DNA from: Folioceros fuciformis
Taxonomy: Eukaryota
Reading direction: 5' to 3'
Assembly: GCA_049999805.1 (NCBI GenBank)
Contig: JBNGIO010006373.1
Coordinates: forward strand, 278,735-298,734
DNA length: 20,000 bases
This document shows positions 1-20,000 of this stretch, one piece after another. The notes under the pieces are model-generated. The model was not told the DNA's origin and made no database searches. It worked only from the letters and a program-made list of their open reading frames with translations. Position numbers and translations under genes: made by a program. The stretch's first letter is position 1. Each line of letters starts with the position of its first letter.

Positions 1-6
1 AAGTAC

Positions 7-3000
7 CAATTGCTTGTCAAAAATGGTGACAGTGAGTAACATTGAGAATGCCCTCAAAGCAGCCAGCTGTGCATCACCCAATGCAGCCATTTCATTAGCG
101 TGCCTCATGGAGCGCAATGTATTCTCTGCCTCAGATGGTGGCAGAACTTGGGGGCCGTCCGATTGGGGCCACCACTCATACCCCAACTCACTCTCTAAAG
201 CGAAGGTATTGTACAGAAAGCTGTCCCCATATGCAGGATATAAATATGCCATTCGTTGCTCTGAATTCGGGTTCAGTAAAATATCAAACTCATTGTTCCT
301 CAAATAATCTGCAATCTGTCGGAATGGCCCTGCTGGTATTGGTCGTCTCACAAGGTCACCTTGAAGGTGATGATACAGGTCACTCATGAGCATAGTTTGC
401 AGTTGCTCACCATAGCTGAGAACAAACAATAGAGGAACTTCAGTGATGGACAGAAGCTCCCGACATTTTCCTTTCTGAACTTCAAATGTTTAGCAATGTA
501 AGTAAAAACCTGTTGAAGGACAATACCTATATCCTCGAGCAGAATACTGGCCTAAAAGTTCAACAAAAGGGGGAAGCTGGAAGACCTATGAGAAACAACA
601 CGAACTTATGTCAGATCCTTGAAAACTGTCAACAAGCCTTCAGAACATGTTCAGCCAAGTAACGCATACCTGCATCGCTGCCTGTCTTATCCTCCCAGCC
701 AGGGAGGAACTTAGTCCCCTGTCAGTACCAGATAGAATTTTACTCATTAATCCCACAACCATGACTCTTGTATCATCCTGCATACAGCAGAAAACAAGTA
801 GCACACACCCCTGATTGTTAGCACAGGCAAGTCACGTGGACAGGACGTCACTAAATAGGCAACAAGGGCCAGTACATCCCGACAGCATATAATGAGCGAG
901 TTTTAGTACCTTAGCATGTTGGATAGCATCTTTATCAAACAAAGTACCCGAATAGACATGCAACATGTTTCTGGTCTCCAAAAGGCCACGCCATTGTTTA
1001 ATAACATCCACAGCACCAGACTCCTTGCTGACAAAGGGTTTATTGTTGGTCTTGTTCTTCTCCTGACTCTCATCGGCCGTTTTTTCACTTTTGGAATCAG
1101 CGAGATACAGAAGGTGCTGCTGTAAGAAAATATCGTGCGCCAAAAGGTTAAATACAGTAGCCTCACACCGATAAAGGTGAGCATAGGAGAATGTTTCCTG
1201 GTTACTCATGCAGGCCCTAAAGGGCTCCCCGGAATCTATTCCGACAATGAGGTTGGACAAGGGTGTGTTTGAGCAACTGGACGAAACACAGCCAGCCAGA
1301 ATCTTCCAGAATCCTTCACGAGTCCTAAGATTCTCTATCACATGGAAATACTCCATGCCACCTTGCCAAAATGAGGCCATCAAGTGGAGTACATGGGCTA
1401 ATATCTTGGGGCGGCTGCAAGCACGCAGAGTATCCAGGCTATTAACCGCAACAAAAGCACCATGATAACAAACATCAAAATGCAGACTAATGCGACATAC
1501 CTATGTAACAGAGTCGCAGCTTTCGCCAGGTAGCCCCATAGCACATGAAGAACCTCACAATTGTCAAGAGAAAACTGCATATTGGATTTCAGATCCCTTT
1601 GGGAAGACAGCAGGGGTCCTTGCACCCCAGCAGAACCTGATCTGTCCTTCGAAGGCTCTGAAGGGAAGATCAAGAACTCCACCAGTGCAGGCTGAACAAG
1701 TGGAATTATAAGTGAAGAACGGTACACTAAATTCCTATCATGAATCGGCTTGCGGGCTGAAAATTCACTTCAAAGATTCTCAACTATGATAAGCGAGGAC
1801 TTCCAGTCATATTCTCAACTACCTCAAATACTGGGTAAAATACCTGAAATCTTATAGCGGTCGCAACCAAATCAGAAACAGCTTCAAACAGTGGATAGTT
1901 AGAGTATGCGTTTTCCTCAGCCAACAATTTGGCAACCATAAACCTAAGCGGTTTCCGCTGCAAAAGACAAACTAGTCATATCAGAAAAGCAGAATATTAT
2001 GTGCTGGTGAAAGGTGAAGATCGGGGGTAATCAAATTGCCAGTTCGACCAAGTAATTGCAAACCTGTTCAGCCAGTATGTAGGTTGCTATACTTATGGGA
2101 TGAGGGCGTGCCATGTGAGACGACATACAGAGGCTAGTCAATGCCTTTGCACTGGCCAATTGAAGGTCCTGTCACCACCATACATGCTAAAGTCAGAGAG
2201 CCCCGAAGATCAGGTCACCAGTTGCTCTAGAAAGGTAATTATTGCTTCTCAATTGCTCACCACATTGCGAGGGAAGTCTAAGTATGACGCTATGACTGCC
2301 ACAACAGGCATCGGACCAGCAGCACGGCGAAAGAGCGTATGCCACAACATCGACAAGCCCGGATGATCCTAGATTCCAAAACAGAACGTTGTTCAAACAT
2401 TCAAACTACAGACTACTAGCAGAAGATAGCTGCTCCATGACAGTTCAAATAGCGAGACTAGAACAAAATAAATGATCTTCACCTTGGACCTACAAGTAGA
2501 TAGCTATTTGCAGACAATCCAAGGATCACTGCGACCATACCTTAGAAGCTCGGCTGATCGTGATATTCAGAAAAACTTGGTGAATCAGCATCAATACCAT
2601 GCGAATAGCGTGTTGAAGACACTCCAGTTCTTTAGGGCGAACAGAGCGGTTGAAATGAAGGTCCTGAAAACATGACACAACCAAAAGATGATGAAAAGTG
2701 TACAACCTCAGATGCACATTACTTGAGGACAAAGTAGTGAGTAGCACCTCAAGGACTGGTGCGCCGATAGAAAGCACTTGCAGAAGGACATCATGAATCA
2801 TCACGTCATATAGTATTGAATCTAAAACACTGAATTCAAACTTTTGAAACTCTGGACGCCAAATAATCCCTGACAAAATATTATGAACCATCTGAAATGC
2901 CTGCACCACATCAAATCAATAAGCAGACGGCACTCAGAGAACTATTCCATGTTGCAGAATCTGAAAGTGCCAACCATCACAGCCGACAGAAAGTAAAATG

Positions 3001-6000
3001 GGAACCTTGGTAGTTATCTGCCACCGCTCATGTCTCTGTTGATACCTCCAATTGCCATGATTCACTAGGAGGTTGCGTACGACATTCATGACCAGCGAAG
3101 CAAGTGACTCTGAAAGTACTCCCCTTTCAAGTAATACGATACTCAAGTCTAGCACTGCAGAAATAGTTGGAGAAAATGTCAGACCCGAAAGTTGAAAGAT
3201 GCAAACCATAATGCCCTGGCACTACAAAGACGCACCGGCCAAAGTGAAAGGGTAACGCCCCACAGTCTGTTCTGTTCTCAGCAGTAAAACCTGCAAAAGG
3301 GTGCCCCCAATCACTGGCCCCCCAACACTGCAAGAGGCACAGACTATCAGGTTACAACAGGCTCCAGAACAGAACCATCTCAACAGCAAGGTCTACAGCA
3401 AAACATACGCGCCTGAGACTAATTTTGGTCCCAGAAGGCTGCAACAAACTAGTCCTGCTGACCTCCATTGCAACTTGGGCAGCACAACTGCAAGCAATTG
3501 ATGGCAGCACCGGTCAAGGAAAGTAAATAGCCTGCTTAGCAGGCTGCATGTGGCCAGCAAACACAGAAAGCATTAAAATCACCAACGGAATGCACAGGTT
3601 TTACCAAAGGCAAAATGATGAGAGGATCCGAAGGCAGGACGCAATTAACAGATCATCTCCAGAATTTTGCACAAGGTTGCTAATTACAGAGCAGATGATG
3701 CCCACAACATCAATCCTGTAGCCACGTAAATGCAATGTCATTAACCCCTACAGCAGTAGTCACACCAATCCAATCGCGGAGATGACTAGACAAACCATTT
3801 GATGCTGACTGAAATTTACCGGAGGTAGCTCTCCATAACCCCTTTTTCACGGCACGTTGCAGCAGCAATGGAATTGTCTAGCTCCAAAAGCAGATGTGCC
3901 AGCCCCTACATTCACAAGCTCCATATTCAACAACTTTGTACCAATTTCACAGACGGTTCTGTGATTGAAATATTCCACTGTGAGCAGGAATTACCTTATT
4001 TGAAGAAAGCATTTTGCTCAGTAGTTTCAAACTAGCCTCCACTTCTTGAAGGTCCTCAATATTTGCAGATCGGTGCAGCATCCTTAGAAGAAGGAGAACC
4101 ATGCCACTGTGACAGCACTGCAAGGGACATGCACTGATGCTCAGAAGTTCCAGGGATATTGTCACACTCAGCTCCATCGCCTTGCTATAGGGAAGTCTAA
4201 TCAGAACCCCAGGGTACCATTCAGCAACAGTGCAGCGTTTCCACATGATAGACCCTTACCTCCCACCGAACAAGACATAAACCAGAAGACGTGTCCCGCA
4301 ACACACGCCCTGAGCTACCAGCCGGAATAAGCAATCCTGGAGCATCTGGAAATTGTAAAGCTGTGGGAGTTTGAACAATATCTTCAACCGTGACACCGTC
4401 TTTCACGAGCGAACCAGGTGGAGGCTGATAGAAACATGTGATATGAACCAACTTGTATAGAAAATCCCACCTGAAGACCAAGACGGCATTCCAACATTGA
4501 AGAACTCTCTGCCAAATGGGCAGAAGTGCAGTTTTTCAAAAGTAACCATTCAGCAAAAGTTGTACATACTTACACACATTCAGCTGGCCAGGTTCCTTCA
4601 CACTGAGCTGCAAGTAGACGAATGAGAGGAACTGATTGGAATGGAAAATACTCTCTGAGAGAGAACAGGAGACTGCGGATGGGCCCATCAATTACACTTT
4701 CACGGTCCCAGAATTCAAGACACAGGGCCTCCTGTAACAATGCATGTTACTTGTCAAAATTTGCTTTTGTGACTTTTCTGGAAAGTAGCAACCAAGCACA
4801 ACAAAAACACTGAAATCAAGAATCTTCACCTGACCCCGATAGACCTCACATAGGATGTCAACCAGGGAATCAAAACCATCAGAATCTACCTGGATGAAAA
4901 ATGTAAGTGCATTAGTACATTCGAAAATTGCACAGAATCTTTGTAGGGCCCAGGACAATCTGCTCTGGAAATCCAACACCAAACAAAACGAGCCAATGTG
5001 ACATGTGACATGCTCAATGTGACACAGCAGCATGACGATATCTACTCACCTGACCAGCAAAATCGTACGCTGCTAGGAGAGCAGCTATCAGGGTTTTCAC
5101 TACATTCTTATATCCACTTCCTTGGTTCTGAAACAAAGCAGCAGCTCGCATAAACTGAGCACAGTGATCAATTCAAACTGTAACCTCACGAACCAGGAAT
5201 TGAAGTACTTAGCTTACATCAGATTCTTGCAATGGCTCGCTCTCCAGAAGTTTCAATAAGAAGTTGTAGCTCCCAGCTCGGTAGGCTTGCCGCACATACT
5301 GCGTGTGGTCTATCTCCTGCAGGACAAATAAGAACACAAAAATAACCTCAACATCTGTATTTGAAGGAGAGCATAACCCACTCATGAGGCATACTACAAC
5401 CGCAACCACATGAGTGATAGTTGTGGACGCGCGGACACAGAAAAATTGGATACTAACTGGAATTGGTGACTGGCCAGCAGTCTCTGGTAAAATGGTCACA
5501 AGACAGATAAAAGTTCCCCATCCCAACAACAGAGGTGCGTAGTCAGGGATGCTAGCAAAGTCCAGGCCCGCCATTATGGAATCCAGCTGCCCAAGATCTT
5601 CAACAGTGATCGAGTGCTCTCCTTGACTGGGAAACATGAAACCAGTATACAAAGTTTTGGTCACGATTAAGAAACTCATGATGAGGGACTGATTGAGCAG
5701 CATGTATCAGATGAAAACATATCTCAGACCTGAATGGAACTTCCCCATGAACCATTGTAAGCAGATTCTCCAGGTCGAGGGCTTCCAGAAGAATGAGGAG
5801 AGCTTGATGTCTCACATGCTTGACTAGCCTTTCTGCTTCCGGGGTGACTGACAACCTCTCCCCAGCAGCAGATTCGAACACGGATTCCTGGCAATGAGGA
5901 AGAACACGTTTTTCAATATCGCTCTACGAACATCAATATGCTTGCATTCTATTTCAAATGTCAGCGAAGGTACCTGAAAGATGGTAAGTAGCCCTTCCAA

Positions 6001-7425
6001 CCGCCTTGCTGCGCAGGTACACAAAGGCTCATAGTACAGTAGGAAAAGGATGTCCAAAAGAAGTGTTTGTTCTAGAGCCATCTCTTCTGCCCAAAGATCA
6101 GCATGCTCCCGCTCCTGGACAAATGTCCATCATGTCACAGAATTATGCCCCGCAACCATCCAGAGCAACTCAATGAGAAAAAATGGAGGTCTACCTGCAT
6201 TTAGTTGCAAGCTAAAGAAAAGTAGTTCGAGGATCTATACCAAATGCTGAGGCTGTGCGGCACAAAGTTGTACTTTCAAAACCTCAATCAATTTCCCTTC
6301 AAGGTCACTTGAGAGAAGTTTCTTCACTTCCTCGTCTATAACGCCACAACAGCTAGACCTCACTCCTTGTTCAGCCACTGCAGTACACGAAAGAGTAATT
6401 CATCGCTTAAGCGACAAAACCAAGACTTCTCAATGCTGTGGAAAAATACCCCAAGAAAACAATCTGCAAAAACTCACTTTGGAAAGCTAGAATAAGTCGA
6501 AGACTTTTCAGAAGACATTGTCTCTCCACAAAGTAGAACATCTCAACCTGCACACACGAACCTGAAGACCTTGAGCATCTCAGGCGTGGACATGCATGAG
6601 ACTGCTACAAATTACTTCTACATAGTAGGAATGGAGTCGGAGAGACAGATACATGCCAGCACTCGGGCAACGGCGACGCCTTACATTATGAAGAAGTTCA
6701 TTGTCCACAATCACAGTTCCATCTGCTGTGGACTCCAAAACCCTGCTGAGCAATAAATACGTCTGTACTTCGTCCAGAACCTGATCAGATCCACCACTCA
6801 TACGAAAACTTAGCCATCAACGCTGGACCACCCCGTTCCCTGAATGCACCCCAAGTTCCATACACACCAGGTGCTTGCTGACTTGCAATGCCACGCCCTT
6901 CCATTCCGGCTTGATTTCCAGCGTGTGGTCCCCGACCGCGATCTGGGCAGAGCTTAATGCTGATTCCGATGTGCTGCTCGGAGGCTTGAACCAAGCGACA
7001 CTGTTGAGAAGCCATTTCTGGTGGGAAGCTAGTTTACTAACCTGCAGGCCACCAAGCAAGCATGACGCTTCTCAATCCCGCGCATACATGTCCGAGAATC
7101 CCACAGATGCACGCACGACTAAATCCCACACAGCGACTATCAACTCAACAGACAGCAGTCATCCCAGAGCCCAGGACATTCCCATTCTCACGGCATAAAT
7201 CGTTAGCTCTGATTCAGGACACGGCACGGCGCGTACCAATGCGTCCAGGACCTCAGACTGTGCCCTGCCAGCTTCTCCAGAGCCCTCGTTTCCAGGTACC
7301 CCAGAGCTCTGCGAGGCTCCAATTTTGTCCAGAACGTGGAAGAGCGATTCGAAGGAATCCCACCAAAGGTCAGCATCTACTTTGAGCGTAGCCGCCTGCT
7401 CAATTGCTCTTGCAACGCTAGCCAT
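7..7425 (-). CDS. NUP188: Nucleoporin NUP188 homologue, multi-exon, 3' end outside the window (29 exons, ~1417 aa visible)
   Basis: ATG at 7425. Manual splicing gives one open, phase-consistent frame. Exons (minus strand): 7425-7237, 7041-6868, 6780-6685, 6547-6478, 6377-6241, 6114-5974, 5887-5730, 5626-5458, 5316-5218, 5127-5050, 4889-4830, 4731-4574, 4470-4260, 4117-3995, 3905-3820, 3715-3605, 3487-3413, 3327-3236, 3154-3006, 2900-2748, 2663-2541, 2368-2261, 2168-2064, 1957-1844, 1691-1501, 1414-910, 777-670, 585-527, 415-7. All introns are GT-AG except one candidate GC-AG. Peptides VDADLWWDSFESL, WFKPPS, LDEVQTYLL, ERQCLLK, LWAEE..LLDILFLLY, FWDRESVIDGPIR, EGTWPAECV, EQTVGRYPFT and SDLYHHLQG match plant NUP188 as recalled from the Arabidopsis protein; no database search was run. 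Confidence 0.92.
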
Positions 7426-8290
7426 AGAGTGACGCCCGATGCACACAGACGTGCTACACCCCCGACGAGCGAGTAAATTTAATCCACAACTCTAGCAGCA
7501 GGCCAGAATTTGGTGCTCAGCAAGTGCCATGTAATGCGGCCTTGCCAAAGGAAAGGTTGCCTGGAGCCAAGCGATGAATCTCCTCACCTTGACGACCTGT
7601 ACCAGATTCAGATTCAGATTCAGCTGCGGTGGATAGTTGAGCAACTCTCCGGGGATTTTTTTTAATGGACAAGATGAGGCAGCGGTGTCGTGCGCACACG
7701 ATCCGAGCGCTAGACCAGTCCACCATTACCTTGTCCTACTGCGCGTGCCTGACTCAGCCAAGCAATTCGCGAAAGACGGAAGGCGGGAAACGGACCTGTT
7801 GGCCCTAGTCTTGCCCTAACTCGGACATCTTCTCGAATACATTTCAAGTTCACCAGCGCGATATTGAATAAGTTAGTACTGGCCACTGACATTGTTCGAC
7901 TTCGTCCATTGTTGTCTTGCGATCCAGGACTTACAAACGGAACGGGAGCTGGCCCTCACAGGTGTGAAAGACTGTATGCAACGCGGCCAAGGATGCTAGG
8001 ACAAGCAACCCAAGGATACTTGTCTGTCCTAATTACAGCGCAGGACATGAGCGTCGTTGTTACACTTAGGGGCTGGATTCAGCCACTGTCACGGTGGCAG
8101 GTCGGTCCTAGCACGTGTGCTCCAGCCGGTCGTTCCATGACGGGCCGCACAGTTTCACACATCAAGTGGAGCAATGGTTTCACCATCATGATGATGTGGT
8201 TATTTATTTATATTATTCAATATAATAATGTGTACAATATTATCATTATTAGATAATTTAATAGCAGATATTGAAAGCATACCTTATCTC

Positions 8291-8474
8291 ATGGCTTCCT
8301 CCATCGCTTCACTCCCTCTTCCATGGCTTCACGCTTCTTCCATTGCTTCACTCCCTCCTTCCATGGCTTCACGCTTCTTCCATAGCTTCACTCCCTCGTG
8401 GCTTCTTCCATCGCTTCACTCCCTCGTCGCTTCTTCCATCGCTTCACTCCCTCGTGGCTTCTTCCATCGCTTCA
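8291..8474. repeat. Tandem array, ~6 copies of a 28-bp CT-rich core (tggcttcttccatcgcttcactccctcg), first copies extended
   Basis: Units are directly visible head-to-tail. They explain the repetitive ORFs in three frames (ASSIASLP / LLPSLHSL). Confidence 0.9.
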
Positions 8475-8781
8475 TTTTGTCGGCGTGCCATTGCACTACC
8501 ACATTCCCTTGGCCGTGGCGTACCTAGGCATTATGATTGCAATGGAATCTACATACATGTGCCTCTTGCAAGCAATCATGTTGGGTGTCCTTCAATGTAG
8601 CCATTGAAGCAACTGACTCATCATCATTGGCATTGATGTTGGGTTATCGAGCGTTGTTTAACAATTGCAATTGCAAGTTCAAGACAAGACAGTCGGGTTC
8701 TATGATTACTAGAAGTATATATATAGACATATGCTATATACTAGAAGCCCATCATTCTTTGATTAACAACTCATGGGCTCG

Positions 8782-8821: not shown

Positions 8822-9000
8822 AGAAGAATGCGTATTTTGAAAACCATATTCCACGCAGAGGAATGCGTGTTTTGAAAGCCATATTCCACGCAGAAGAATG
8901 CGTGTTTTGAAAGCCATATTTCACGCAGAAGAATGCGTGTTTTGAAAGCCATATTCCACGCAGAAGAATGCGTATTTTTAAAGCCATATATATTCCACGC
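8822..9000. repeat. Minisatellite, 5 copies of a 35-bp unit (agaagaatgcgtgttttgaaagccatattccacgc)
   Basis: Units start at 8822, 8857, 8892, 8927 and 8962; the last has a 4-bp insertion. There are no spacers. Confidence 0.93.
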
Positions 9001-9726
9001 TATTTGTGCCAACCTCCTCTATGCTCACAACTTAATGCTCACAACTCAAGATACTTCATTTGGGCCACTTAAACATAAAGTTGTTATGTCCTTACTTAAG
9101 CTTGCAGCTTGCAGGTAATTAAGGATCTCTTTGGATACAGAACATCTACTGTATATGTATGTGTATGTGTTCACCAATTTTGTGCAGTTTTTTTGTAGAC
9201 CTTACATAATACCTATATTTCATGGCTGTCGATGGCTCATATGCAAATTTTGTGTAGAAATTTGTCTGGAAATCATCTGGAAATTTTGATGTCATTCTTA
9301 GAACGAAAGCTTTGTTTCTGCCACGAGAAGGTATGGATTTATGGACAGAAGAATTTTCCTATCATCTAAGTTGGCGACAAGGACACGGGATGAGCTTGGC
9401 AACAATCCCACTTAAGTTGCAGTTGGAGGAAGATGAACAAGATGCATATATAGTGAACATGGCAACTTCTTTGGAAGGACAGGATAAAGAGGATGATGAA
9501 GATAAGTTGTGGGTTTTCATTATATGCAAAAATTGTGTATTAAAGAATGCACTGGCGTCAATTTGGAGGAGGATTCAATGAGAACAGATGTTACTAGAAC
9601 ATTAGCTGGAAGTTTTAGATAACATGAAAAATCACATTCTGAGTTTCAGCAAGATAATAAGATTCAACCTTATACAAAGTAGGCAGTTAGTAAACTCAAA
9701 TCTGTGTGTAATTATGAAAAGGGACT

Positions 9727-10324
9727 TGTCGTGCTGTGCCACTAAACATCACACTCACACATGGTTCATTAGTTAACAATACTCACACCACACCACATTT
9801 TACACACATTAAACATTGCATGATTGTGCTGTAGTTCTATAAGAGTGAAGCATTTGCTTCCTTCAGACACCACAAAATCTCCTCCACCTGCATCCACACT
9901 TCTCAAAGCTGTAACTTGGCTTCTCAAATCCTCGATAGGGTTACATGATCTTGCACACTGCGGACATACACACCTCAACCAGATTTCCAACAAGAGAATG
10001 CTCCCTCAAGAGAAAGCCTATTCCCAGAAAGCAAGAAAATACAAGCTTATAGCTGCAGCGAACACCACTAATTTAGACTTTATATTATATTGTATTTTCT
10101 AATCATCTTCACTAAATAATTGTTAATTACCACTAATGTCATTCATTAGCATCACTTAATTATTAACTAATTACTATTTGCATGCATCTAAGCGATAGCA
10201 CACAATCATGCTTGGCAGCTGTCGTGTTGTGTCGCTAAACATCGCACTCATGCATGGTTCATTAGTTAACAATATTTACACCACACCATATTACACACAC
10301 ATTAAACACTGCATGATGGTGCTG
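9727..10324. repeat. Two diverged 105-bp direct repeats (9727-9831 and 10220-10324), LTR-derived
   Basis: Both begin tgtcgtg, share atggttcattagttaacaata...caccacacca...acacacattaaaca.tgcatgat.gtgctg, and are colinear with scattered substitutions. Confidence 0.85.
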
Positions 10325-10326
10325 CA
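9830..10326 (-). repeat. Candidate 3' LTR (~497 bp) of the gypsy element
   Basis: On the minus strand it starts TGCAG immediately after the purine tract and ends ...CTACA at 9830, giving TG..CA with near-inverted termini. There is an internal ctataag TATA-like motif near 10050. No second copy is present in the window to confirm it. Confidence 0.5.
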
Positions 10327-10341
10327 ACTTTATCCCCCCTT
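10327..10341 (-). other. Polypurine tract (PPT) of the gypsy element
   Basis: Minus strand reads AAGGGGGGATAAAGT followed directly by TG, ~110 bp downstream of the pol stop at 10453. Confidence 0.7.
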
Positions 10342-10452: not shown

Positions 10453-10750
10453 TCACCTATTAATGAAGATTAAGTTGTTGGCGCATGACTTTGGCAACTT
10501 CGTACAATTTGGGCAAAACCAATCTTCTTGTGGTACTTCTTCCAAAGCTGGCTATAGACAAAACAGGTAATACCCTTAATTGCAATGATCACACAAGAGC
10601 ATGGTATCTTCTTCATCAGTGCGACCACAAATGCGGCATTCCAAGTCCTTGGGTGGTATCCAAGTGCTAGGTCGTAGCTCTAGATCCAAATCTGGCAAAT
10701 GACATGGAGCTAGGTTCTTCAAATGATCTTGCTAACTTTGTCCATCAGAT
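10453..10750 (-). pseudogene. Integrase C-terminal tail plus PHD zinc finger (finger at 10638-10504)
   Basis: Manual translation: DHLKNLAPCHLPDLDLELRPSTWIPPKDLECRICGRTDEEDTMLLCDHCN*GYYLFCL*PALEEVPQEDWFCPNC. This has C4HC3 PHD spacing with the conserved LLCD and W-x-C-x-x-C. The His ligand is mutated to Tyr (TAC) and there are two in-frame stops, so it is absent from the ORF track. Confidence 0.88.
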
Positions 10751-10751
10751 G

Positions 10752-11594
10752 AACTCGAAAATGCATCACTACCCACACAAGTGCTAAACACTCTCATTCA
10801 TAAGAACAATAGTTCGCCTGTGCTGCGTTCATACTGCGACTAGCATAAGCAATAGGGTGCTCTTCTCCATCCCCAAAAACTTGTGCTAGCACTACACCTA
10901 ATCCAAGCTTGCTGCAGTCAGTATACAACAAAAATTCCCTTGTAAAGTCTGGTCTCCATAAAACTGGACTGTTGCATAGCATGTTTTTCACCTCTAGTAA
11001 TGCCAACTCTTGTTCATGTCCCCAACACCATTCTTCAACAATAGTGTCAATGGCTTCACAATTGAACTCATGTTAGGTATGTACCTTCGATAATAACTTA
11101 CAAGTCCAAGAAATGTTCGCAACTTGGAAATGTCAGTTAGCCTAGGCAATTTTATAATGGCCTCCACTTTGGGCATGTAAGGTGAAATGCCCTCTGGAGT
11201 AATCTCACGTCCCAGGTACAACACCTTGTTGTACACAAATGTACACTTACGAGGATGACATTTAAGCCCCCATTCCTTCAACCTAGCAAGACTTTTTCAA
11301 ACACATGAATTTGCTCTTCAAAAGTCTTGGTGAAGATAATGATGTCATCCACATAACACCTTGCCTCAGGCACGTCTGCCAATGCACCATCATCATTCTC
11401 TTGAAACACCACAACAGAATTCTGTAGCCCAAATGGCATCCTTAGCCATTCATATAATGAATCTCTTCCCTAGAATGCCGCCTTGCACCAATCCTCCTCC
11501 ATGATGTCAATTTGGTTTGCCTAAGATCCAATGTGGAGAAGTAGCAAGCACTTCCAATGTCATCAAAGATTTCATAAGGAGTAGGCATTGGATA
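10752..11594 (-). pseudogene. Gypsy reverse transcriptase and partial RNase H
   Basis: YPMPTPYEIFDDIGSACYFSTLDL, MPFGLQN, CYVDDIIIF (YVDD at 11355-11344), KCTF..KVLYLG, LRTFLGLVSYYRRYIPN, PDFTREFLLYTDCSKLGLGVVLAQ and PIAYASRSM..AQANY. Several frameshifts and stops. Confidence 0.95.
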
Positions 11595-12405
11595 CCCATG
11601 CAATTTTCCAATCTCCCTCCAGACCCCTTACACATACTCATACTGAAAAAGTAGGGGCTAACTTTTGTTTGGCGCACCCACAGAACACAACCTGCAGAAT
11701 TTCTCCTTAGCAGCGATAAGCAAACCATCCCATCGATCCGTTGTAGGCAACCAAGCTTGAAAAAAGCACCATACCATAGCCTGACCTTTGGAGGGACACA
11801 CACTATTGTCCAAAGGAGATGGAGAGCGCATCGTTGCCAATAAACGAGTAACCCCATCCTAGGAGCCATCAATTCATGCTTATGGCTCCTCTACATCTTA
11901 ATCAGCTAATGATAGACATCTGCAGTACAAACATTAAAGAAGGAGGTAGAACCCTCATGGCAACCATTAGGGCATTTGGGCCAGCTATAAAGGTCAAGTC
12001 ACAAGGTGAGCTCCCAATTCTCTACAAGACAAAACTAGCACCGCCTCCTTGAGTTGAGTTCCAAGTGATGTCCCATGGCAACTCGTCCTCTGTTAACCAT
12101 CTATCCACTCGAGTAGAGCGGGATAGGACCATAAGAGGCCGTAGAGACCACTTGCTAATCACTCCTTCTTCTCTTCCATGTCCTTTTAAAAGAGCATTGG
12201 GTGAGGTCACTCTAAAGGACAAGGTAGCTCCCTAATTACCCGGGCTAGCAATGAAGGTTGCTCGGTCAAACTCCGGAAGGGTGCAATCCTCATCTAAGTC
12301 CTCATCCTCTAACTTGTCCTCTAGCGCATAGGCTCCACAAGTGTCTGCTTCCACCTCTGCTGGTATCATCAGAGCCTGTCTAGCACCCTCGTCCATGCCA
12401 CTCTA

Positions 12406-13296
12406 CAGCCATCGGAAAATGACTCTAAGATGGTGAGCAGGAATGCCAAATTCTTCCTTTAATTCTCGCTCCCGTGCATTTGGCTCTTCTAAATCATCTC
12501 CTTTGGAACTCATCACTCTCCCTGGTGAGTCAGCATATCCAAAAGCATAAGAGCCACTTGCACTTACAAAGGTTGGTTATGCTACCCTTGGTTTTAACAC
12601 TTCATTCACGGCAAAGTACGGCATACTTTCACGCTTCATGACTTCTTGAGGATGCTTGTCTCCGAACATGATGCCTTTCACTTGCACCATTTTTGGCACT
12701 GTGATATCCCTGCATGCCATCAATGCTTCTCTAAGCATCATGTTGTTCCATATGCACCTTAGTCGATGTGCACGTGACCCAAACTGCACAGCATGAAGAT
12801 ATACTTCCATGCCCACTACTCCTTTGATTTGTTTGAAGCTATCCTTCACAATTTGCCTCTTGTCAAACATTGCCAAAACGTTCTCAAGAATGTACCCACA
12901 TGACTCTTGCTGATATTGTTCAACCAACCTAATAATCCTTGTCGGCTCAAAGAATAGCATTGACCTTAGATCCAACAATCCGCTTCCTGCTCCTGCCAAT
13001 GACATGCCTTGACATTCCCACCCGGCAATGATCAAGTTTACTGACACTCCCAATCCCTAGATTTGCTCCCATCCTATATGCCTTACATCCGCAGGTAGTT
13101 GTTTTTGAAAGTTCCTCATCGCCCCCTTGTCTAATAAATCTGGATAACGATTCAACAGCTCCTACACACGTGCTGTTGCCACAACTTGAGCCTGCACATC
13201 TCTGTCACAATAGACATATTTTCTTATCTTCACACCACTTCACAACATTGCTTCCAGCCGTGAGCGTATGCCACCAAACAACTCCACCAGTGTTAT
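12406..13296 (-). pseudogene. C5-cytosine DNA methyltransferase domain embedded in gypsy pol
   Basis: One frame with in-frame stops. Motif I ITLVELFGGI (13296), motif II YVYCD, motif III LPADVRHI, motif IV LIIAGWECQGMSLAG (Cys 13014-13012), motif V GLLDLRSMLFFE, motif VI YILENV (12885), motif VIII QFGSRAHRLRCIW and motif IX-like EEPNARERE. Motif X is not clearly recognisable. Confidence 0.9.
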
Positions 13297-13581
13297 CCCT
13301 TTATCGGTGACATTCCACTTAATGATTCTTTGGTCCACTGAATGGTTGCTAGCAATCACACTTTGGTCTTGGCAGTATGATTGCGGTTGATACTCCACAT
13401 GCTCAACATCCTTTTGTTTGTACAGCATTAGCCTTCTCATTGCTTTCTGAAATGCAGGCCTACCTTGGATTTGTAAAGGTGCTATTGTTTGCCTTTATTG
13501 CTCCATTGCCGCCTCCACCAATAAACTCTCAAATGTAGCTTCTTCGACACTGTCTTCTTCTAGGTTGTACATTAATGCCAC

Positions 13582-13989
13582 TTACTCCCTCAGCTCCACA
13601 CTTGTTGTATGCACCTGATACACCGTGTGAGTCATCATTGCCGCCTGTTTCGGGTGCAACAATGACAATGGCACCAGTGCCAATGTTCCTACACCTTCTT
13701 CCCACTTTGGATAGAAGAACATTTGTTCTGTCCAATTGTCAACTCCTCCCCCGGGCAGGTACAATGCTTCACACCCTAACAAAAAATCGTAACCGGCCAC
13801 ATCAGTAGCCAAACAAGTTACCTTAATGAATGTAGCATTATCTATCCTCAACTTTAATGCTATGTTCAGCGGTTTGGCCGTCTCTCCTAACACAGACTTG
13901 GTCGTGCCAGCTACCGTATGTATGTAGTTAGAAGTACAGACCGCGTTGGTTATGGGTAACTTAGCTAGTGTGGTCATACCCTTTGGTAT
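13582..13989 (-). pseudogene. C-terminal part of retropepsin-like aspartic protease of gypsy pol
   Basis: IHTVAGTTKSVLG flap-like segment and YDFLLGCEAL (D-x-x-LG motif), in the same frame as the downstream DNMT. The catalytic D-S/T-G is lost at the junction near 13990. Confidence 0.7.
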
Positions 13990-14107
13990 TTAGTACCGAA
14001 GAGGTACAACTCTTCAGACACAAGCTATAAAAGCCCACCTCTTGTAATCAATTTTATCAATTAGTAAAGCACTATGTTTTGATCAAACGCTTCTGCAAAG
14101 CACGACA
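13990..14107 (+). repeat. 3' part of the copia 5' LTR
   Basis: Contains TATA-like ctataaaag (~14026-14034) and ends ...GCACGACA four bases before the PBS. The TG start is not present at the left junction. Confidence 0.65.
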
Positions 14108-14111
14108 AACT

Positions 14112-14123
14112 TGGTATCAGAGC
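14112..14123 (+). other. Primer binding site complementary to initiator tRNA-Met (TGGTATCAGAGC)
   Basis: Exact canonical plant LTR-retrotransposon PBS just after a CA terminus and upstream of gag. Confidence 0.92.
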
Positions 14124-15467
14124 ACAAGTTTGATTACTAAGTTCATCATGCATTATGATGTGAATCTAAATGTTCTTCTAATATGCAACGTCTTTCTTAT
14201 GCCTTTGGTATTTGTAATATGGAGCTATTTTATACTTATTCATAGTTTCTCTTATATTCAACCAAACATGTTTTTTTCTAATAAAATAGTTTGGCTTCTT
14301 CTATGATTAACTTTTATATTCATTAAAGTTTCATGTCTAATTACCACTCTCATTCTTCAATCTTATTCTTCCAAAACCTAAATCTCAATAGATTCAGCAA
14401 GTCAATCTTTCTCATTCCTCACATTTGCTACAACACGAAAAGCTTGCTATCAGAAGAAAGTTGATCATGTCTCAACACAGGAGATTCCACCAGGTAGGGC
14501 ACCCTCTTTTGGCGCCACTTTTGATCCCGAGATTTCGAAGGATTTGACGCTGGAGGTTTCTGGTCGTTCAGTGGTGGTTCTGGACGGCGCCGGTTTAGAT
14601 CTCTTACCAGAAAGGTTGCCTGGGCTGGATGCCCCTTCTGCATCTTGCGCACTTCAGATTGAAGGAGTTTTGGCCTAGATCGGTGGAGGTGAAATTGCAG
14701 GGGGGATCCGGCAGTTATGCGCATGTCCAACTTGCTGAGCAGCAAAACGGTTCCCCAACTGCCAACTTAAATCGAGTTTCTTATCGGGGGGCATTTCTGA
14801 CCCACCCAATGAAACTCAGTTGCAGTTTCTTTCACAAGGGTATGAAATGGTTCCCCCGTTTCTTACGGCGTTTCTGTCCTTTGATATCTTATTTTCCCGG
14901 CTTCCGAACAGACTTGGGGTATCTGATGGGGCCCACCTGGTGTGTTCCTCTGGATCTCCTGGCATACCTTTACAGCCCTCACCTGCAACTATTCAGTGCT
15001 CCTCGCCTCCTTATACGCAGCCTCTGGCGGTGGAGTGTCTAGTTTTTCCAGCTTTAGTCATCAAGCAAGAGCCCTTATCGCCGCACTTTCAACGTGACAA
15101 CCTTTGCCACTCAGCGTTACCTTTATCAGCAAGCTAGTGCTACTCCTCAAGAGCTATTTCAACTGGAGTGTCGTCATCTCCGTGATTATCTTAATCAGCT
15201 CTCTGAGTCGGTGCACTCAGTTGCCCAAGCAGTTCAACATCTTTCTACTGTTTATGGCCCTAGTAATCGTGGCATCGTTCACTAGGTTGCTTGACTTTCT
15301 GGACTTTTATTCGTATACCATTTGAGTTGATCCTCTTCAAGATTTGATATATCAATATATATATATTTGAAGACTACTTGGCTTCTCGTCATAACTTGAA
15401 GTTAGCAGAGTCCTTCTTGTATTTCTTTTCTGCTTCTATCTAATCACTATTGTTTGCTTCTATCACG

Positions 15468-18400
15468 ATGGCTTCCTCATCAAACACGCCCCCTACTCCT
15501 ATCATCAATTATGTGAATGTGACTTCTGAATTCAAAGAGAAAGACCGTTTTGACGGCACTAAGTTCGAGATATGGTCCAAACGTATGCGTTCTGTCTTGA
15601 ATACTAGAGATCTACTTGGCATAGTTGATGGATCTATTACCAAACCTAATGGGCCTTCACCTGCCCACAACTCTTGGTTGAAACAAGACAAGCTAGCTAT
15701 GCATATCCTTATCTCGGGCCTCGATGAAGTCACTCTTCATCATCTTGATGGTGCTACTACTGCTGCTGAGGCTTGGTGGCAGCTAGTCGATATTTTTCAA
15801 TCTACCAATGTTATGACATTAGTAACAGCGCGCAACGAATTTTATTCTCTCCGCATGAATAATAATGAGAGCATTGGTACTTATGTTGGCAAGTTTCATT
15901 ATCTTCGGGCCCAGCTTGCTGCCTTAGGCACTCCCTTATCGGAATTCGAAGCTTGTGTCCAACTGCTGGCCTCCTTTCCTGCCAGCTTTCAAGCATTTGT
16001 GTCCTCTCAGAATGGCACTGTTCGAGAGGCTCATCAGGCGATAAAGGCTGGCCGCACACCCAACATTTCCATCTCCGAAATTGCCGGCGCTCTCCTTCAA
16101 GAGGAGGCTTCCAAATACAACGACGGCACTTCAAAGCATGGTGGTGAACGAGTTATGTTCATTAGCAAAGGCCGTCAATGCCACCAGCTCCACCAGCGAC
16201 GTCGTCCTCCTCCACCTGATAGGTGGCCCTTCACTGCGCCTTCTCCGGCTCCTGGTCGTGAACCTTCGGCATCCAAACCTACTAGTTCCGGCCGCAAGCC
16301 CGGTACCTACAACTGGTGTCAAATTCCAGGCCACTGGGAGCCTGATTGTCGCAAGAAGAAAGCTGGCGAGCCTCGACGTCCATCCAAGACTGCCAATACG
16401 GCCTCGACCTCCAAGCAGAAACAGGCCGACATTGCCCTCACAATCTGCTTGGCAGCTTTTGAGTATAAGACCTCTTGGCTAATGGATTCCGCTGCCTCCG
16501 CGCATATATGCTGCCATCGTCATATGTTTTCTTATTATCTCCCTGCCAAAGATCAACGTTTTGTTCTTCTCAGCGACGACTCTGGCCTTACTATTGCGGG
16601 CACTGGCACTATTACTTTTACTCTTGAAGATGGTTATGTGTTTCTTCTAAGTGATCTGCTGCATGTTCCGCAAATGGCGAAGAATCTTATTTCTGTTCGA
16701 CACTTGGTGAAGGACAGTACATTCCGGCTAGAATTTGGAAGAGGCGATTGCCTCCTCACAAGATCTGTTGCTCCTGGTCGCGTGGTTGCCAGAGGTCGTC
16801 CGCGACATGATCTCTATGTCTTCTCCACCGTACGAGTGATCACGGCTTCCTCGACCCCAGCTTCCGCCATGGCAACTGCGGTTGACAAAGGGAGTTCTCG
16901 CAAAGGCGACTCCCTATTATGGCATTCTTGGCTTGGACATATTAATCATGCTAAGCTTCTCGAGATGTCTAAGCAGGATTTAGGGATAAGCTACCTCACT
17001 TTTCACAGACTCCACTATTATGTGAACCTTGTATATATGCTAAACAGCGTAGCTTCCCCCATCCTACTCTCCTTGCCCGTCATGCTACTCAGCCCTTGGA
17101 GTTGGTCCATGTTGATCTTTGTGGTCCACTTCCCGTCCTTTCACTTGGCGGCGCACTGCATTTTATGACTATTGTTGACGACTATAGTCGCTATACCTTT
17201 GCTATTCCACTCAAGTCGAAGAGTGACTCCTTCGGCTCCTTTGCTCCTTTTGTCACTATGGCCGAGCTGCAAACCGTTTGCAAGCTTCGGTGTATTAGAT
17301 TTGACAATGCAGGGGCATTAAATAACCGGCAATGTAAGAATTTTTGTCTTGAGAGGGGGATTCTCCGTCAATTTACGGTTCCCTACACTTCCCAGCAGAG
17401 TGGGGTTGTTGAAAAGGCCAACGGCGATTTGCTCGCCATGGCCCACGCTATGCTAGCCTGTGCTCAGCTCCCCAAACCCTTTTGGGCCGAAGCGATAAAT
17501 ACTGCAGTGTATCTCCGCAGCAGGGTACTTTCCAAGTCCGTTCCTGACCAGACACCCTTTGAGTCATGGCATGGATATAAGCGTCTTACTACTCATCTTC
17601 GGATTTTTGGCTACCCCGTCTATGCTAATATTCCTTCTTAGCTTCTCGACAAGCTTTCTGCTCGTGCTCGCAAGCTGGTATTTGTTGGCTATGGCGAGGA
17701 TTGTAAGGCTTATAAACTGGTTGACTTGGATACCCATGCTATTGTATATGCTCGCACTGTCACTTCTGATGAGGCTTGGTTAGCATTTGCTCGTTCTGAG
17801 TCCATGGATTCTACTTCGGCTCCTTCAGACGACACGGCTTCTTCCGACCCAGGTGACCTTATGCCTGAGTTTTTGACTCAGCCCTCTGTTTTCCCGGACT
17901 TTGGTCTTGCACCCACTGCTCCATCCTTGGCCTCTTCACCTCAAGCAGCACCTATCCCTATTGTTCCTGCTCGAGAGGGGGAAGATGAACACACCATTGT
18001 TGATCCTTATGAAAACAGAGAAGACTTTGGTGCTCTTAATCCACAAGACCCAGAGACTGTTCCTGCTCCACCTTGTCCTGTAATACTTGATCCAGCCCTT
18101 GAGCAAAGATATCCTTTGCGTCATCATCAACCGAGACACCTTTGGAATGAGATCCGCTTTGATTTAGAGTTCAATCAAGCTGCCTACACCACCACTGCTG
18201 CAGGTCACTTCAACGCCTTTAGTGTTGCCCCTTAAGAGGGAGATCCTCTCACTCTGCAAGAGGCATATTCGCAGCCCGATGCAGCTAAGTGGAAGTTCGC
18301 TATTGATGATGAATATAATTCTCTTATCAAAAATAATACTTGGACTCTAGTAAACTTGCCGAAAGGCAGAACTACTGTCAAATGCAAGTGGGTTCTCAAA

Positions 18401-19754
18401 ACTAAATTCCAAGAGGTTGAACCTCATATTCGCTACAAGGCGAGACTAGTGGCTAAGGGTTATACATAGAAAGAAGGAGTGGACTATCGGGGCGATAAGG
18501 TTTATTCACCTATAGTCAAGGCTGCTTCCGTGAGAATGCTCCTGGCTTTATGTGACGAGCTTAATCTGGAAATTTATCAGCTTGATGTTTTTACTACTTT
18601 CCTTTATGGTCATCTGCAAGAAGAGATCTATATGGATCAACCAGAAGACTACGAAGATAAGCAATATCCAAATAAGGTGTGTAAACTTATTCGTTCTATT
18701 TACGGACGAAAGCAAAGCCCACGTTTATGGTATGAGAGAATGGACTCTTACCTTAAGAAGATCGGTTTTATCCAAAGTGAAGCATACACCAATATCTATG
18801 TACTCCGCAAGGACAGCTCCTTTGTACTGGTTGCTCTTTATGTTGATGAATTAGTTATTCCTGGCAACAATATTGAACTAGTTAACAAGATTAAAGATGA
18901 CGTTAATAAAGAATTCGAGATAAGATTAAAGCAGACTTTCGTAAAGAATTCGAGATGAAGGATCTCGGCAAATTTAAATATATTCTTGGTATGCATGTAC
19001 ATAGAGATACCACTGGTGCTATCTATCTCCATCAAGGAAGATATGTAGTTGGTAAGTTAAAACGCTTCAATTTGGAGAATGCACGTGCGGCAGCCACACC
19101 TGGCGCCGTAGGTGTTAAGCTTTCATTTGCTACGTGTCCATAATCAGAACAGGAAAAGAAAGAGATGGAAAATATTCCTTATCGTATGGGAGTTGGTACT
19201 CTCATGTTCTTAAGTAATCAGACTAGACTTAATATCTCAAATATTGTAAATGCTATTGCTCAGTTCTCAGAGAATCCAAGAAAGGATCACAGGGTTGCTC
19301 TTACGTGCATCATGCGGTACCTCAAGGGTACGCCAAATTATGGCCTCTGCTTCAAGCCTAGCGGAAAGAAGCATATGCTGCTGACATGCTTTGTTGATGC
19401 AGATTGGGCTTCAGATGCAGACACCCGAAAAAGTATCTCAACATATTGCTTTCTTGTTGGCTCCACTGTTGTTAATTGGTCTTGTTGAAAACAAGCTGCA
19501 ATATCACTTTTGTCAACGGAATCGGAGTACAAAGCACTCACTGAAGCCACGAAAGAAGTTGAATGGGAAAGAAAGCTATGTGAAGATTTAGATATGAAGC
19601 AGGAAGGACCAACAATTCTTAACTGTGACAATATGTCAGCCATTGGTCTTGTCGCTAATCATGTCTTTCATGCGCGCGCGAAGCATATTGAGATTCAACA
19701 CCATTATATTCATGACGTTGCTCAGAGGGGAATTTTTAAGGTACAGAATGTACC
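15468..19754 (+). pseudogene. Copia gag-pol polyprotein with frameshifts and premature stops
   Basis: Gag: RFDGTKFEIWSKRM and degenerate zinc knuckle YNWCQIPGHWEPDC. Protease: WLMDSAASAH. Pre-integrase: LWHSWLGH. Frameshift near 16990. Integrase: LVHVDLCGP, IVDDYSRY, RFDNAG, QQSGVVEK. RT: CKWV, RYKARLVAKGY, LDVFTTFLYG, LYVDEL. RNase H: FVDADWASD, STESEY, CDNMSAI, KHIEIQHH. Stops include 17639, 18233, 19141 and 19486. Confidence 0.95.
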
Positions 19755-20000
19755 TGTGGGGTTAAAATATGGTAATCGGGGGTACCGCGAGGTCCACACA
19801 AGCCCTCTATGTTGTTGTAGCTCTGGGATTCGATCCCAAGGGAATGATTTGTGTTAAACTACACAGGTTAGCTTCTAAAGTCAATTAACACCTAAAGCTC
19901 GACTGACCCACACACACACGTCCAGTGCTCGGACCTTACCAAGCCCCCATACTTCTCACACCAGACGACCCCTCGACCCACCGGTCGCCCTAGGGACTAC
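19755..20000. mobile_element. Probable terminus of another LTR element inserted into the copia RNase H
   Basis: Copia homology stops after KVQNVP, before the expected ADxxTK motif, exactly where TGTGGGGTTAAAAT begins. The following sequence looks non-coding. Confidence 0.55.

Follow-up and report, generated by a model that had tools for sequence, protein, structure and literature searches.

Can one retrotransposon carry both a reader of histones and a writer of DNA methylation, and how would the two work together? The question is raised by a 20,000-nucleotide stretch of the genome of Folioceros fuciformis, called the window here, which holds a decayed copy of a Ty3/Gypsy element (family A of this genome). 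The original prediction placed a hidden PHD finger at the C-terminus of the element's integrase (INT), in the same element as a cytosine DNA methyltransferase (DNMT). The finger is the integrase C-terminal domain of a green-plant Ty3/Gypsy lineage that has a DNMT3-like domain in Pol. To this lineage our preferred explanation adds putative reading of histone H3 by the finger, tethering of integration and methylation of cDNA, and as a whole we consider it somewhat more probable than not.

The finger is encoded by 45 Cys-rich codons on the reverse strand (10638-10504), as read from the translation, with stop codons at 10578 and 10554. Cys codons are at 10638, 10629, 10593, 10584, 10560, 10515 and 10506. 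Tyr replaces the His ligand at 10569, and because of this replacement the finger has C4HC3 spacing and yet is not intact. The original prediction, a C4HC3 finger missed by open reading frame (ORF) calling, was thus correct in position, in the two stops and in the domain family, and wrong in the His ligand. The profile check that it proposed gave 44.5 bits to PF00628 (cut-off 24, E 1.6e-11) with the stops read as X. The window contains the spaced pattern once; none of 100 locally shuffled windows contains it. A full Cys4-His-Cys3 set in an open frame is absent from the window finger and is present in the copies L059, L061 and L055. The window finger is a genuine PHD finger that is dead in this copy. 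It was also said to end the pol frame just before the polypurine tract (PPT). In intact copies it does form the integrase C-terminus; in the window it is out of the RNase H frame, since the integrase is almost wholly missing and RNase H is joined out of frame to its tail, and the PPT is ~160 nt past the last Cys codon. As predicted, the finger occupies the site where chromoviruses have their chromodomain, the order in L059 being INT-PHD.

Table 1. Features of the decayed element in the window, with the domains of the intact ORF of L059 in the last line
Feature	Position	Strand	Basis or remark
repeat B2, element 3' end (CACGACA)	9727..9840	-	85% identical to B1
repeat A2	9841..10217	-	counterpart A1 is the 5' end of family copy L041
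repeat B1, 114 nt, ends CACGACA, then 2-nt GC spacer	10220..10333	-	repeat comparison
polypurine tract (G run), directly before B1	~10334-10341	-	sequence; same place in families C and D
PHD finger, decayed	10504..10638	-	PF00628
last ~30 integrase residues and linker to PHD	10639..10750	-	with finger, 57% identity to L059 residues 2301-2374
~1.5-kb integrase deletion junction	10736..10750	-	microhomology: RNase H side vs integrase tail
RNase H, shortened by deletion	10746..11033	-	PF17919 E 1.3e-29
reverse transcriptase, frameshifted, N-terminal part lost	11024..11606	-	PF00078 E 2.9e-8 (one frame piece)
~850 bp without match	11607..12459	.	where other copies have DNMT end and RT start
DNMT3-like cytosine methyltransferase domain, interrupted by stops and lacking its C-terminal end	12460..13338	-	PF00145 E 1e-6, 28.9 bits, cut-off 22
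aspartic protease C-terminal half and linker	13339..13947	-	tblastn to L059 residues 778 onward
L059 ORF domains	protease 744-840; DNA_methylase 1056-1106; RVT_1; RNase H; H2C2; rve; PHD 2330-2374		Pfam

The window copy is incomplete at several points (Table 1). Gag and the 5' repeat A1 are missing; in L050, a copy of this family, gag and protease are present upstream. In L041, L005 and L043, 1.4-1.6 kb of integrase lies between the two sides that are fused in the window. The segment 11607-12459 gave no match among the fetched loci or to Pfam, and 13950-15440 gave none to Pfam. At the 3' end, window positions 9840-10211 match L041:1197-1639, which is 3.7 kb upstream of the DNMT piece of L041.

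The finger and the DNMT belong to the same element, as the original prediction had it. A DNA search with the PHD region found 13 matches in the genome, including the window itself. L041, L005 and L043 are 87-90% identical to the window in nucleotide sequence and have an integrase with H2C2, core and a GPY/F-like motif; L041 also has reverse transcriptase (RT) and a DNMT piece upstream of the integrase-PHD, in order. A single ORF of the sister copy L059, 2386 aa long, runs Gag-PR-DNMT-RT-RH-INT-PHD, where PR is the protease and RH is RNase H. Its DNA_methylase match is slightly below the cut-off (21.3 bits against 22), its PHD match well above (44.8 bits against 24 for PF00628), its rve match has an E of 2.7e-11, and the ORF stops 10 residues past the finger. 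Four further copies are 96.8-99.8% identical to L059, so this family is young. The order DNMT-RT-RH-INT-PHD is colinear at 16 loci of the genome (L041, L055, L059, L060, L068, L070, L072, L116-L120 and L122-L125), which were picked from paired matches and do not give a rate.

Co-occurrence across copies, which had been proposed as a check, points the same way. Protein searches of the genome gave at least 130 DNMT and at least 137 PHD matches. Among the 106 merged DNMT loci and 110 PHD matches listed, a DNMT is followed by a PHD within 8 kb on the same strand in 25 cases, as against 3 in reversed order and 2 on opposite strands. Many of the gaps in the 25 pairs are near 3.1 kb, although two exceed 7 kb and one pair, on C2064, mixes families. 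Where enough contig is present, a PHD is found at 12 of 24 DNMT loci and a DNMT at 10 of 25 PHD loci, both values being depressed by decay and by unscored candidates. The genome has at least four families of the element, with intact young copies among them. Five near-identical copies of family D (L061, L062, L067, L074 and L075) each have an internal deletion of their own, with overlaps of 7-20 nt, in which RT and/or RNase H are gone. Judged by tblastn frames, these deletions keep the DNMT in frame with the downstream part of pol, and assembly artefacts are possible; the deletion lengths are multiples of three in 3 of the 5, a count that is unreliable at gapped ends.

The same combination recurs in other green organisms. 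A query with the DNMT region of L059 found 58 long proteins, of which 41 have DNMT, integrase and PHD in order, 37 of the 58 with the order RT-RH-DNMT-INT-PHD. A profile-free search of cluster representatives gave 150 matches. A DNMT is present in 65 of them, and 34 of these 65 continue in order with integrase and PHD; the 41-protein and 34-protein sets have six proteins in common. About half of the 150 representatives consist of RT-RH twice over, with neither DNMT nor PHD; they probably result from merged gene calls and served as outgroup only. Nine representatives have DNMT and integrase and no PHD, and seven of these end too early to judge. A query with the integrase-PHD region gave 10 proteins, nine of them with a PHD match and eight above cut-off. 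The named hosts in which the DNMT comes after RNase H are chlorophytes (Scenedesmus, Haematococcus, Chlamydomonas eustigma, Monoraphidium and Pseudoscourfieldia), and those in which it comes before RT are Closterium, whose proteins are the closest named relatives. The pair is not obligate, because four proteins with the DNMT before RT (P0213, P0290, P0066 and P0297) end without a PHD.

An integrase tree of 72 rows places all 50 rows of this element kind in one clade (SH-aLRT 99). Within it, a subclade of 17 (SH-aLRT 99) holds the four genome families, Closterium and the DNMT-first rows except P0183, and the position of the DNMT has shifted within the clade. The tree comes from a quick search without bootstrap, with outgroups only and no named reference clades, and leaves out P0297, whose integrase match is short. 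The known range of DNMT3-carrying Gypsy elements thereby grows from one alga to a clade of chlorophytes, streptophyte algae and a land plant, in which the PHD finger is the usual integrase-terminal reader. The land plant host has one DELLA-GRAS gene and a gene for radial spoke protein 3, two genes that together point to a land plant whose sperm are flagellated. The difference in DNMT site, after RNase H in the chlorophyte type and before RT in the streptophyte type, offers a natural contrast on the physical coupling of reader and writer. Many chlorophyte-type relatives (P0011, P0012, P0010 and others) run 300-400 residues beyond the PHD. P0011 has a weak Tudor-like match (PF21743, below cut-off) and a DPFAGxG motif that by eye resembles an adenine methyltransferase and would tie the clade to the DAM-LTR preprint.

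The residues of the two domains bear on what they may do. In the PDB, the DNMT of L059 matches DNMT3A, B or C in 29 of 29 cases, and in its sequence the domain is DNMT3-like. Pfam finds no ADD domain in the transposon DNMT. Of 105 relatives, 100 retain the EN-type motif VI and 99 the R-x-R motif VIII; motif IV keeps its Cys, as GWEC in 51 of 105 and GWPC in 24 of 105, and the DNMT motifs of P0010 and P0011 are degenerate. The best PDB matches of the finger are the first PHD finger (PHD1) of KDM5, UHRF1, WSTF, CHD4 and BAZ2B. We found 85 element fingers, 78 of which fit the pattern. An acidic residue, the equivalent of KDM5A D312, follows Cys3 in 70 of the 78, and Pro stands four before Trp in 62. 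None of the 78 has Trp two before His, which we take to be the aromatic-cage position. KDM5A PHD1 binds unmodified H3 by means of D312, essential for H3R2, together with L309, P331 and W335 (H3A1), and readers of this type have no aromatic cage (accessible text of bioRxiv 10.1101/715474). The element fingers resemble KDM5A/B PHD1 in keeping the equivalents of L309, D312, P331 and W335 and in having no cage; they differ at the D315 equivalent, where families A, C and D have Asn. By their sequence they would thus appear to have the residues of unmodified-H3 readers. When the L059 finger was modelled without alignment in a complex with the H3 tail encoded by this genome, the score was 0.30 against a mark of 0.34, which counts neither for nor against binding.

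Both the PHD finger and the DNMT are under purifying selection. In older copies dN/dS is 0.12 for PHD, 0.21 for DNMT, 0.11 for RT and 0.16 for INT (7-9 non-independent pairs); in decayed family A, again from non-independent pairs, it is 0.40, 0.70, 0.56 and 0.56, respectively. In three younger copies of family C the changes in the PHD are mainly non-synonymous, in tiny counts. In the integrase triad of L059 and P0005, 34 residues and not 35 were counted by eye between the second Asp and the Glu.

The element does not have two complete LTRs; its ends are split repeats in the order A-internal-PPT-B-A-B, with TG...CA termini and a 4-bp target site duplication (TSD). In L070/L071, a 470-nt repeat A opens the element with TGTCGTG, and the ORF and a G run are followed by B (111 nt), two bases, A, and a B that ends in CACGACA, with ATCT on both flanks. 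All three sites with both flanks readable have a TSD (ATCT, TGTA and GCAT). The latter two flank the solo A-B units L081 and L082, which have TG...CA ends, lie within Copia coding DNA, and look like ordinary solo LTRs. The A-ORF-B-A-B layout and the CA-GC-TG junction are common to families A, C and D, the repeats of A and D having sequences of their own. At the 5' end A stands alone in nine of nine full elements and is followed by ACTTC... and not by TGG. No tRNA primer site was found after A, nor a tRNA gene in the window. The split ends together with the 4-bp TSDs suggest a DDE integrase that acts on an unusual intermediate.

The junctions between the repeats suggest what this intermediate may be. 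The B1|A2 junction is constant (CA-GC/AC-TG), and the A2|B2 junction is variable (AAGG, GAAGG, GGAAGG, TGGGAGGG and one deletion). A constant B1|A2 with a variable A2|B2 fits the latter as a fresh circle junction with PPT remnants, and slippage in the G run could give the variation too. An A-B-A form, expected at the 5' end from cutting of the second attachment site of a simple two-LTR circle, is seen in none of nine 5' ends. L039, L043, L045 and L060 terminate right after B1, without A2-B2, either as products of one-LTR circles or by B1-B2 recombination. We slightly favour a model in which the repeats would be LTRs (B-GC-A by PPT priming) with an internal integrase attachment site, leading to integration via a cDNA circle. 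A 9251-nt contig in a second sequencing data set, possibly of RNA, covers the element, which is therefore present there as well, although this is no sign of its being transcribed; its B-A joint was considered as a sign of a circle and set aside, since the genomic B1-A2 order explains it. In family B, the 3' ends of L055, L117, L123 and L125 have two B-like repeats of ~90-170 nt with little or no spacer. Pipelines that require two matching LTRs would presumably miss elements with split repeats.

The split-repeat ends tie the element to KnitGypsy-Dnmt3 of Klebsormidium nitens, which has a DNMT3-related domain in the Gypsy Pol ORF and a DIRS-type repeat arrangement with Gypsy domains (de Mendoza et al., 2018, PMC5890265, legend of Fig. 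4c). The two have in common the DNMT3-related domain in Pol, the split repeats and a streptophyte host, and the present element is very probably a member of the same kind; it differs in its land plant host, in having at least four families and in its young intact copies. The word PHD does not occur in those parts of PMC5890265 and its supplements that are searchable as text, and the domain figure (Fig. 4c) may show one. Our named matches include no K. nitens sequence. The KnitGypsy DNMT had no activity in yeast, a result its authors judged inconclusive, and the accessible text of the 2018 report leaves the function of retrotransposon DNMTs open (PMC5890265). Intact natural DNMT domains from many lineages now make that function testable.

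PHD fingers in retrotransposons have been called widespread (accessible text of PMC6673714; PMC8557442; 10.1101/2021.11.30.470311), and Supplementary Table 6 of the last is reported to list 823 chromatin-transposon fusions. Gypsy-7a_cRei of Chlamydomonas reinhardtii has a PHD in its Gypsy polyprotein; targeted insertion was proposed for it, with intergenic insertions 2.6 times above chance (accessible text of PMC9940879). Unlike the present element, it has two near-complete LTRs, and its figure legend lists no DNMT (PMC9940879). REM1 of the same alga is grouped with PHD Gypsy elements (as cited in the accessible parts of PMC2774666, PMC8557442 and PMC6673714). EpiLTRs of Cymbomonas and Euglena combine a chromodomain, a cytosine methyltransferase and an adenine methyltransferase in an LTR retrotransposon, their DNMT being sister to DNMT4 and distinct from the streptophyte Gypsy-DNMT3 (available portion of bioRxiv 10.64898/2026.05.21.726589). 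The element resembles them in pairing a histone reader with a cytosine methyltransferase in one LTR retrotransposon. It is not an EpiLTR: it has a PHD and not a chromodomain, its DNMT is DNMT3-like and not DNMT4-like, and L059 ends 10 residues past the PHD.

Plant chromoviruses have a reader domain at the integrase C-terminus after a GPY/F-like motif (REXdb, PMC6317226), and neither 'PHD' nor 'methyltransferase' occurs in the accessible text of that source. The element differs from them in its split-repeat ends and in the chromodomain, no Chromo family being found by Pfam in L059, L061 or P0032. By analogy it may act like a chromovirus in which a PHD stands in for the chromodomain, and by the chromodomain test it is not one. 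Tyrosine-recombinase retrotransposons of the Ngaro/PAT type have A ... B-A-B repeats (review file of PMC5890265, in part); the element has the same layout and differs in having a DDE integrase, a protease and 4-bp TSDs. No tyrosine recombinase was found in L059, whose one ORF of at least 300 aa contains rve, and the element is not DIRS. For each part there is precedent in the accessible literature, for the PHD in Gypsy-7a_cRei and for reader plus writer in EpiLTRs. The novelty that the original prediction saw in the combination was therefore overrated, with a DNMT3-Gypsy (PMC5890265), a PHD-Gypsy with a targeting proposal (PMC9940879) and an LTR element with reader and methyltransferase (bioRxiv 10.64898/2026.05.21.726589) all in print, on the evidence of their accessible text. 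In the literature covered, which includes few subscription papers, theses and repeat databases, we found no text on DNMT3 and PHD in one Gypsy Pol or on such elements in land plants or chlorophytes. PMC3350952 and PMC11982613, in their accessible text, have nothing on PHD or DNMT in Gypsy.

How the two domains may serve the element can be put as a series of steps of unequal probability. The finger probably binds the unmodified N-terminus of H3, with H3K4me3 disfavoured, to judge from the pocket residues. Fused to the integrase, it may hold the integration complex on nucleosomes whose H3K4 is unmethylated and so bias insertions away from active promoters, a step to which we give an even chance. 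More tentatively, the protease might free the DNMT, which might then methylate CG sites in the cDNA of its own element, either ahead of insertion or at that step. In the layout with the DNMT before RT, the PHD and the DNMT very likely work side by side in one life cycle and not as one coupled reader-writer enzyme; since RT and RNase H stand between them in a polyprotein that has a protease, the DNMT and the INT-PHD are probably separate proteins. The most specific version is that of a green-lineage Gypsy clade, recently active in a seed-free land plant, that makes circular cDNA via an intra-LTR site, chooses H3K4-unmethylated chromatin with its PHD and arrives CG-methylated by its own DNMT3. 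This version is unlikely to hold in every part; if true, the element would reproduce by itself the host rule under which unmethylated H3K4 marks the sites of DNA methylation.

Insertion sites and base composition were examined for traces of these steps. Copia coding DNA lies within 1 kb of 8 of the 18 sites of family C; among control tiles the same holds for 25 of 74 when they come from arbitrary contigs (p 0.42) and for 3 of 56 when they come from large contigs (p 0.0003). Tiles from a single locus are not independent of each other, and the large-contig controls leave out 7 unusable stretches of 20. The test does not demonstrate targeting, because most sites are on short contigs and the outcome varies with the control. 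Ten element ends, from families A, C and D, were tested separately, and none adjoins Copia. At codon boundaries of the family C ORF, 42 CpG are seen where 178 are expected, compared with 27 and 41 in the Copia of the window; in L059:2209-9369 the observed/expected ratio of CpG is 0.34. Family D has 66 against 105 and 37 against 67, a deficit no stronger than that of the host DELLA gene (26 against 51), so that a strong deficit is found in one of the two young families, C and not D. Genome-wide, the stops in decayed DNMT matches are mostly TAG, which may fit deamination of methylated CAG.

Other readings of the same data were considered. The original prediction drew a loose parallel with the pairing of reader and catalytic domain in cellular DNMT3. 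Taken literally, this would place the DNMT and the INT-PHD in one polypeptide or complex, the finger directing or switching on methylation at H3K4-unmethylated nucleosomes near the insertion. The ADD domain plays such a directing and activating role in DNMT3A. The transposon DNMT is without ADD by Pfam, in most chlorophyte-type relatives (37/58) it is directly before the integrase, and the five internally deleted copies of family D have the DNMT and the downstream part of pol in one frame. These copies were, however, chosen partly for their long open frames. In this genome RT and RNase H stand between the domains, the DNMT has moved within the clade, and the PHD is lost in four relatives that keep the DNMT. 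The parallel is weakened by the separation of the domains and by these four relatives. A direct coupling of the ADD kind is less likely when the DNMT precedes RT and gains plausibility in the chlorophyte arrangement, in which DNMT and integrase are adjacent; as a general account we regard it as improbable.

It is about as improbable that the finger reads not the target chromosome but the element's own circularised cDNA, packed with fresh unmodified histones, and guides the integrase to the internal attachment site. The internal CA-GC-TG site and the variable A2|B2 junction fit a circular intermediate, the four copies that end in B1 (L039, L043, L045 and L060) look as if derived from a one-LTR circle, and the flank test did not demonstrate a target bias. 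However, no circle was observed, the B-only ends could come from B1-B2 recombination, and the 2.6-fold excess of intergenic insertions of the PHD-bearing Gypsy-7a_cRei fits reading of the target (accessible text of PMC9940879).

We think at least as doubtful an account in which neither domain does what its family suggests, the finger being kept for a non-histone role (protein or nucleic-acid binding, or integrase folding) and the DNMT binding DNA or RNA without catalysis. Motif IV has EC for PC in about half of the relatives, the DNMT motifs are degenerate in P0010 and P0011, and the KnitGypsy DNMT was inactive in yeast (PMC5890265, accessible text). Against this, the residues of the H3A1 and H3R2 pockets are conserved over dozens of 50%-identity clusters, and the EN-type motif VI and the R-x-R motif persist in 100 and 99, respectively, of 105 DNMT domains.

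That a host gene or a different element supplied the PHD through the join at 10750, as the rearranged state of the window copy (the 10750 deletion and the foreign 850 bp at 11607-12459) and the inversion of the PHD half relative to the DNMT half in L039 might suggest, is hardly credible, since L041, L005 and L043, at 87-90% identity to the window, join the RNase H and PHD sides via integrase and intact single ORFs carry both domains. The inversion is a rearrangement of L039 itself, and a foreign element spliced at 10750 is ruled out as the source of the PHD by the colinear copies. The original prediction had named intact relatives that end without a PHD as evidence against it; the intact ORF of L059 carries one. 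Both refuting conditions that it had set were checked, and neither overturned it.

The remainder of the window contains other elements and a host gene. A fragment of a second DNMT-Gypsy family (9275-9712, forward strand), made up of the protease end and the pre-DNMT linker and 70-74% identical to family B, adjoins the element end in opposite orientation. A decayed Ty1/Copia (15444-19900, forward strand), in which Pfam recognises gag, integrase and RT, contains a 35-nt duplication (18887-18956). A multi-exon host gene occupies 1-7491 on the reverse strand and starts ~2.2 kb from the element end; it presumably encodes a protein resembling nucleoporin Nup188. Pfam gave no match above cut-off on those host-gene exons that were submitted, and the ESM Atlas returned nothing at or above 0.9 for the one exon submitted. 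Between the host gene and the element are two minisatellites, at 8265-8483 (~28-nt unit) and 8822-8996 (~35-nt unit). Elsewhere, the genome has one DELLA-GRAS gene (L077) and a radial spoke protein 3 gene (G000:C6163:80916-82140).
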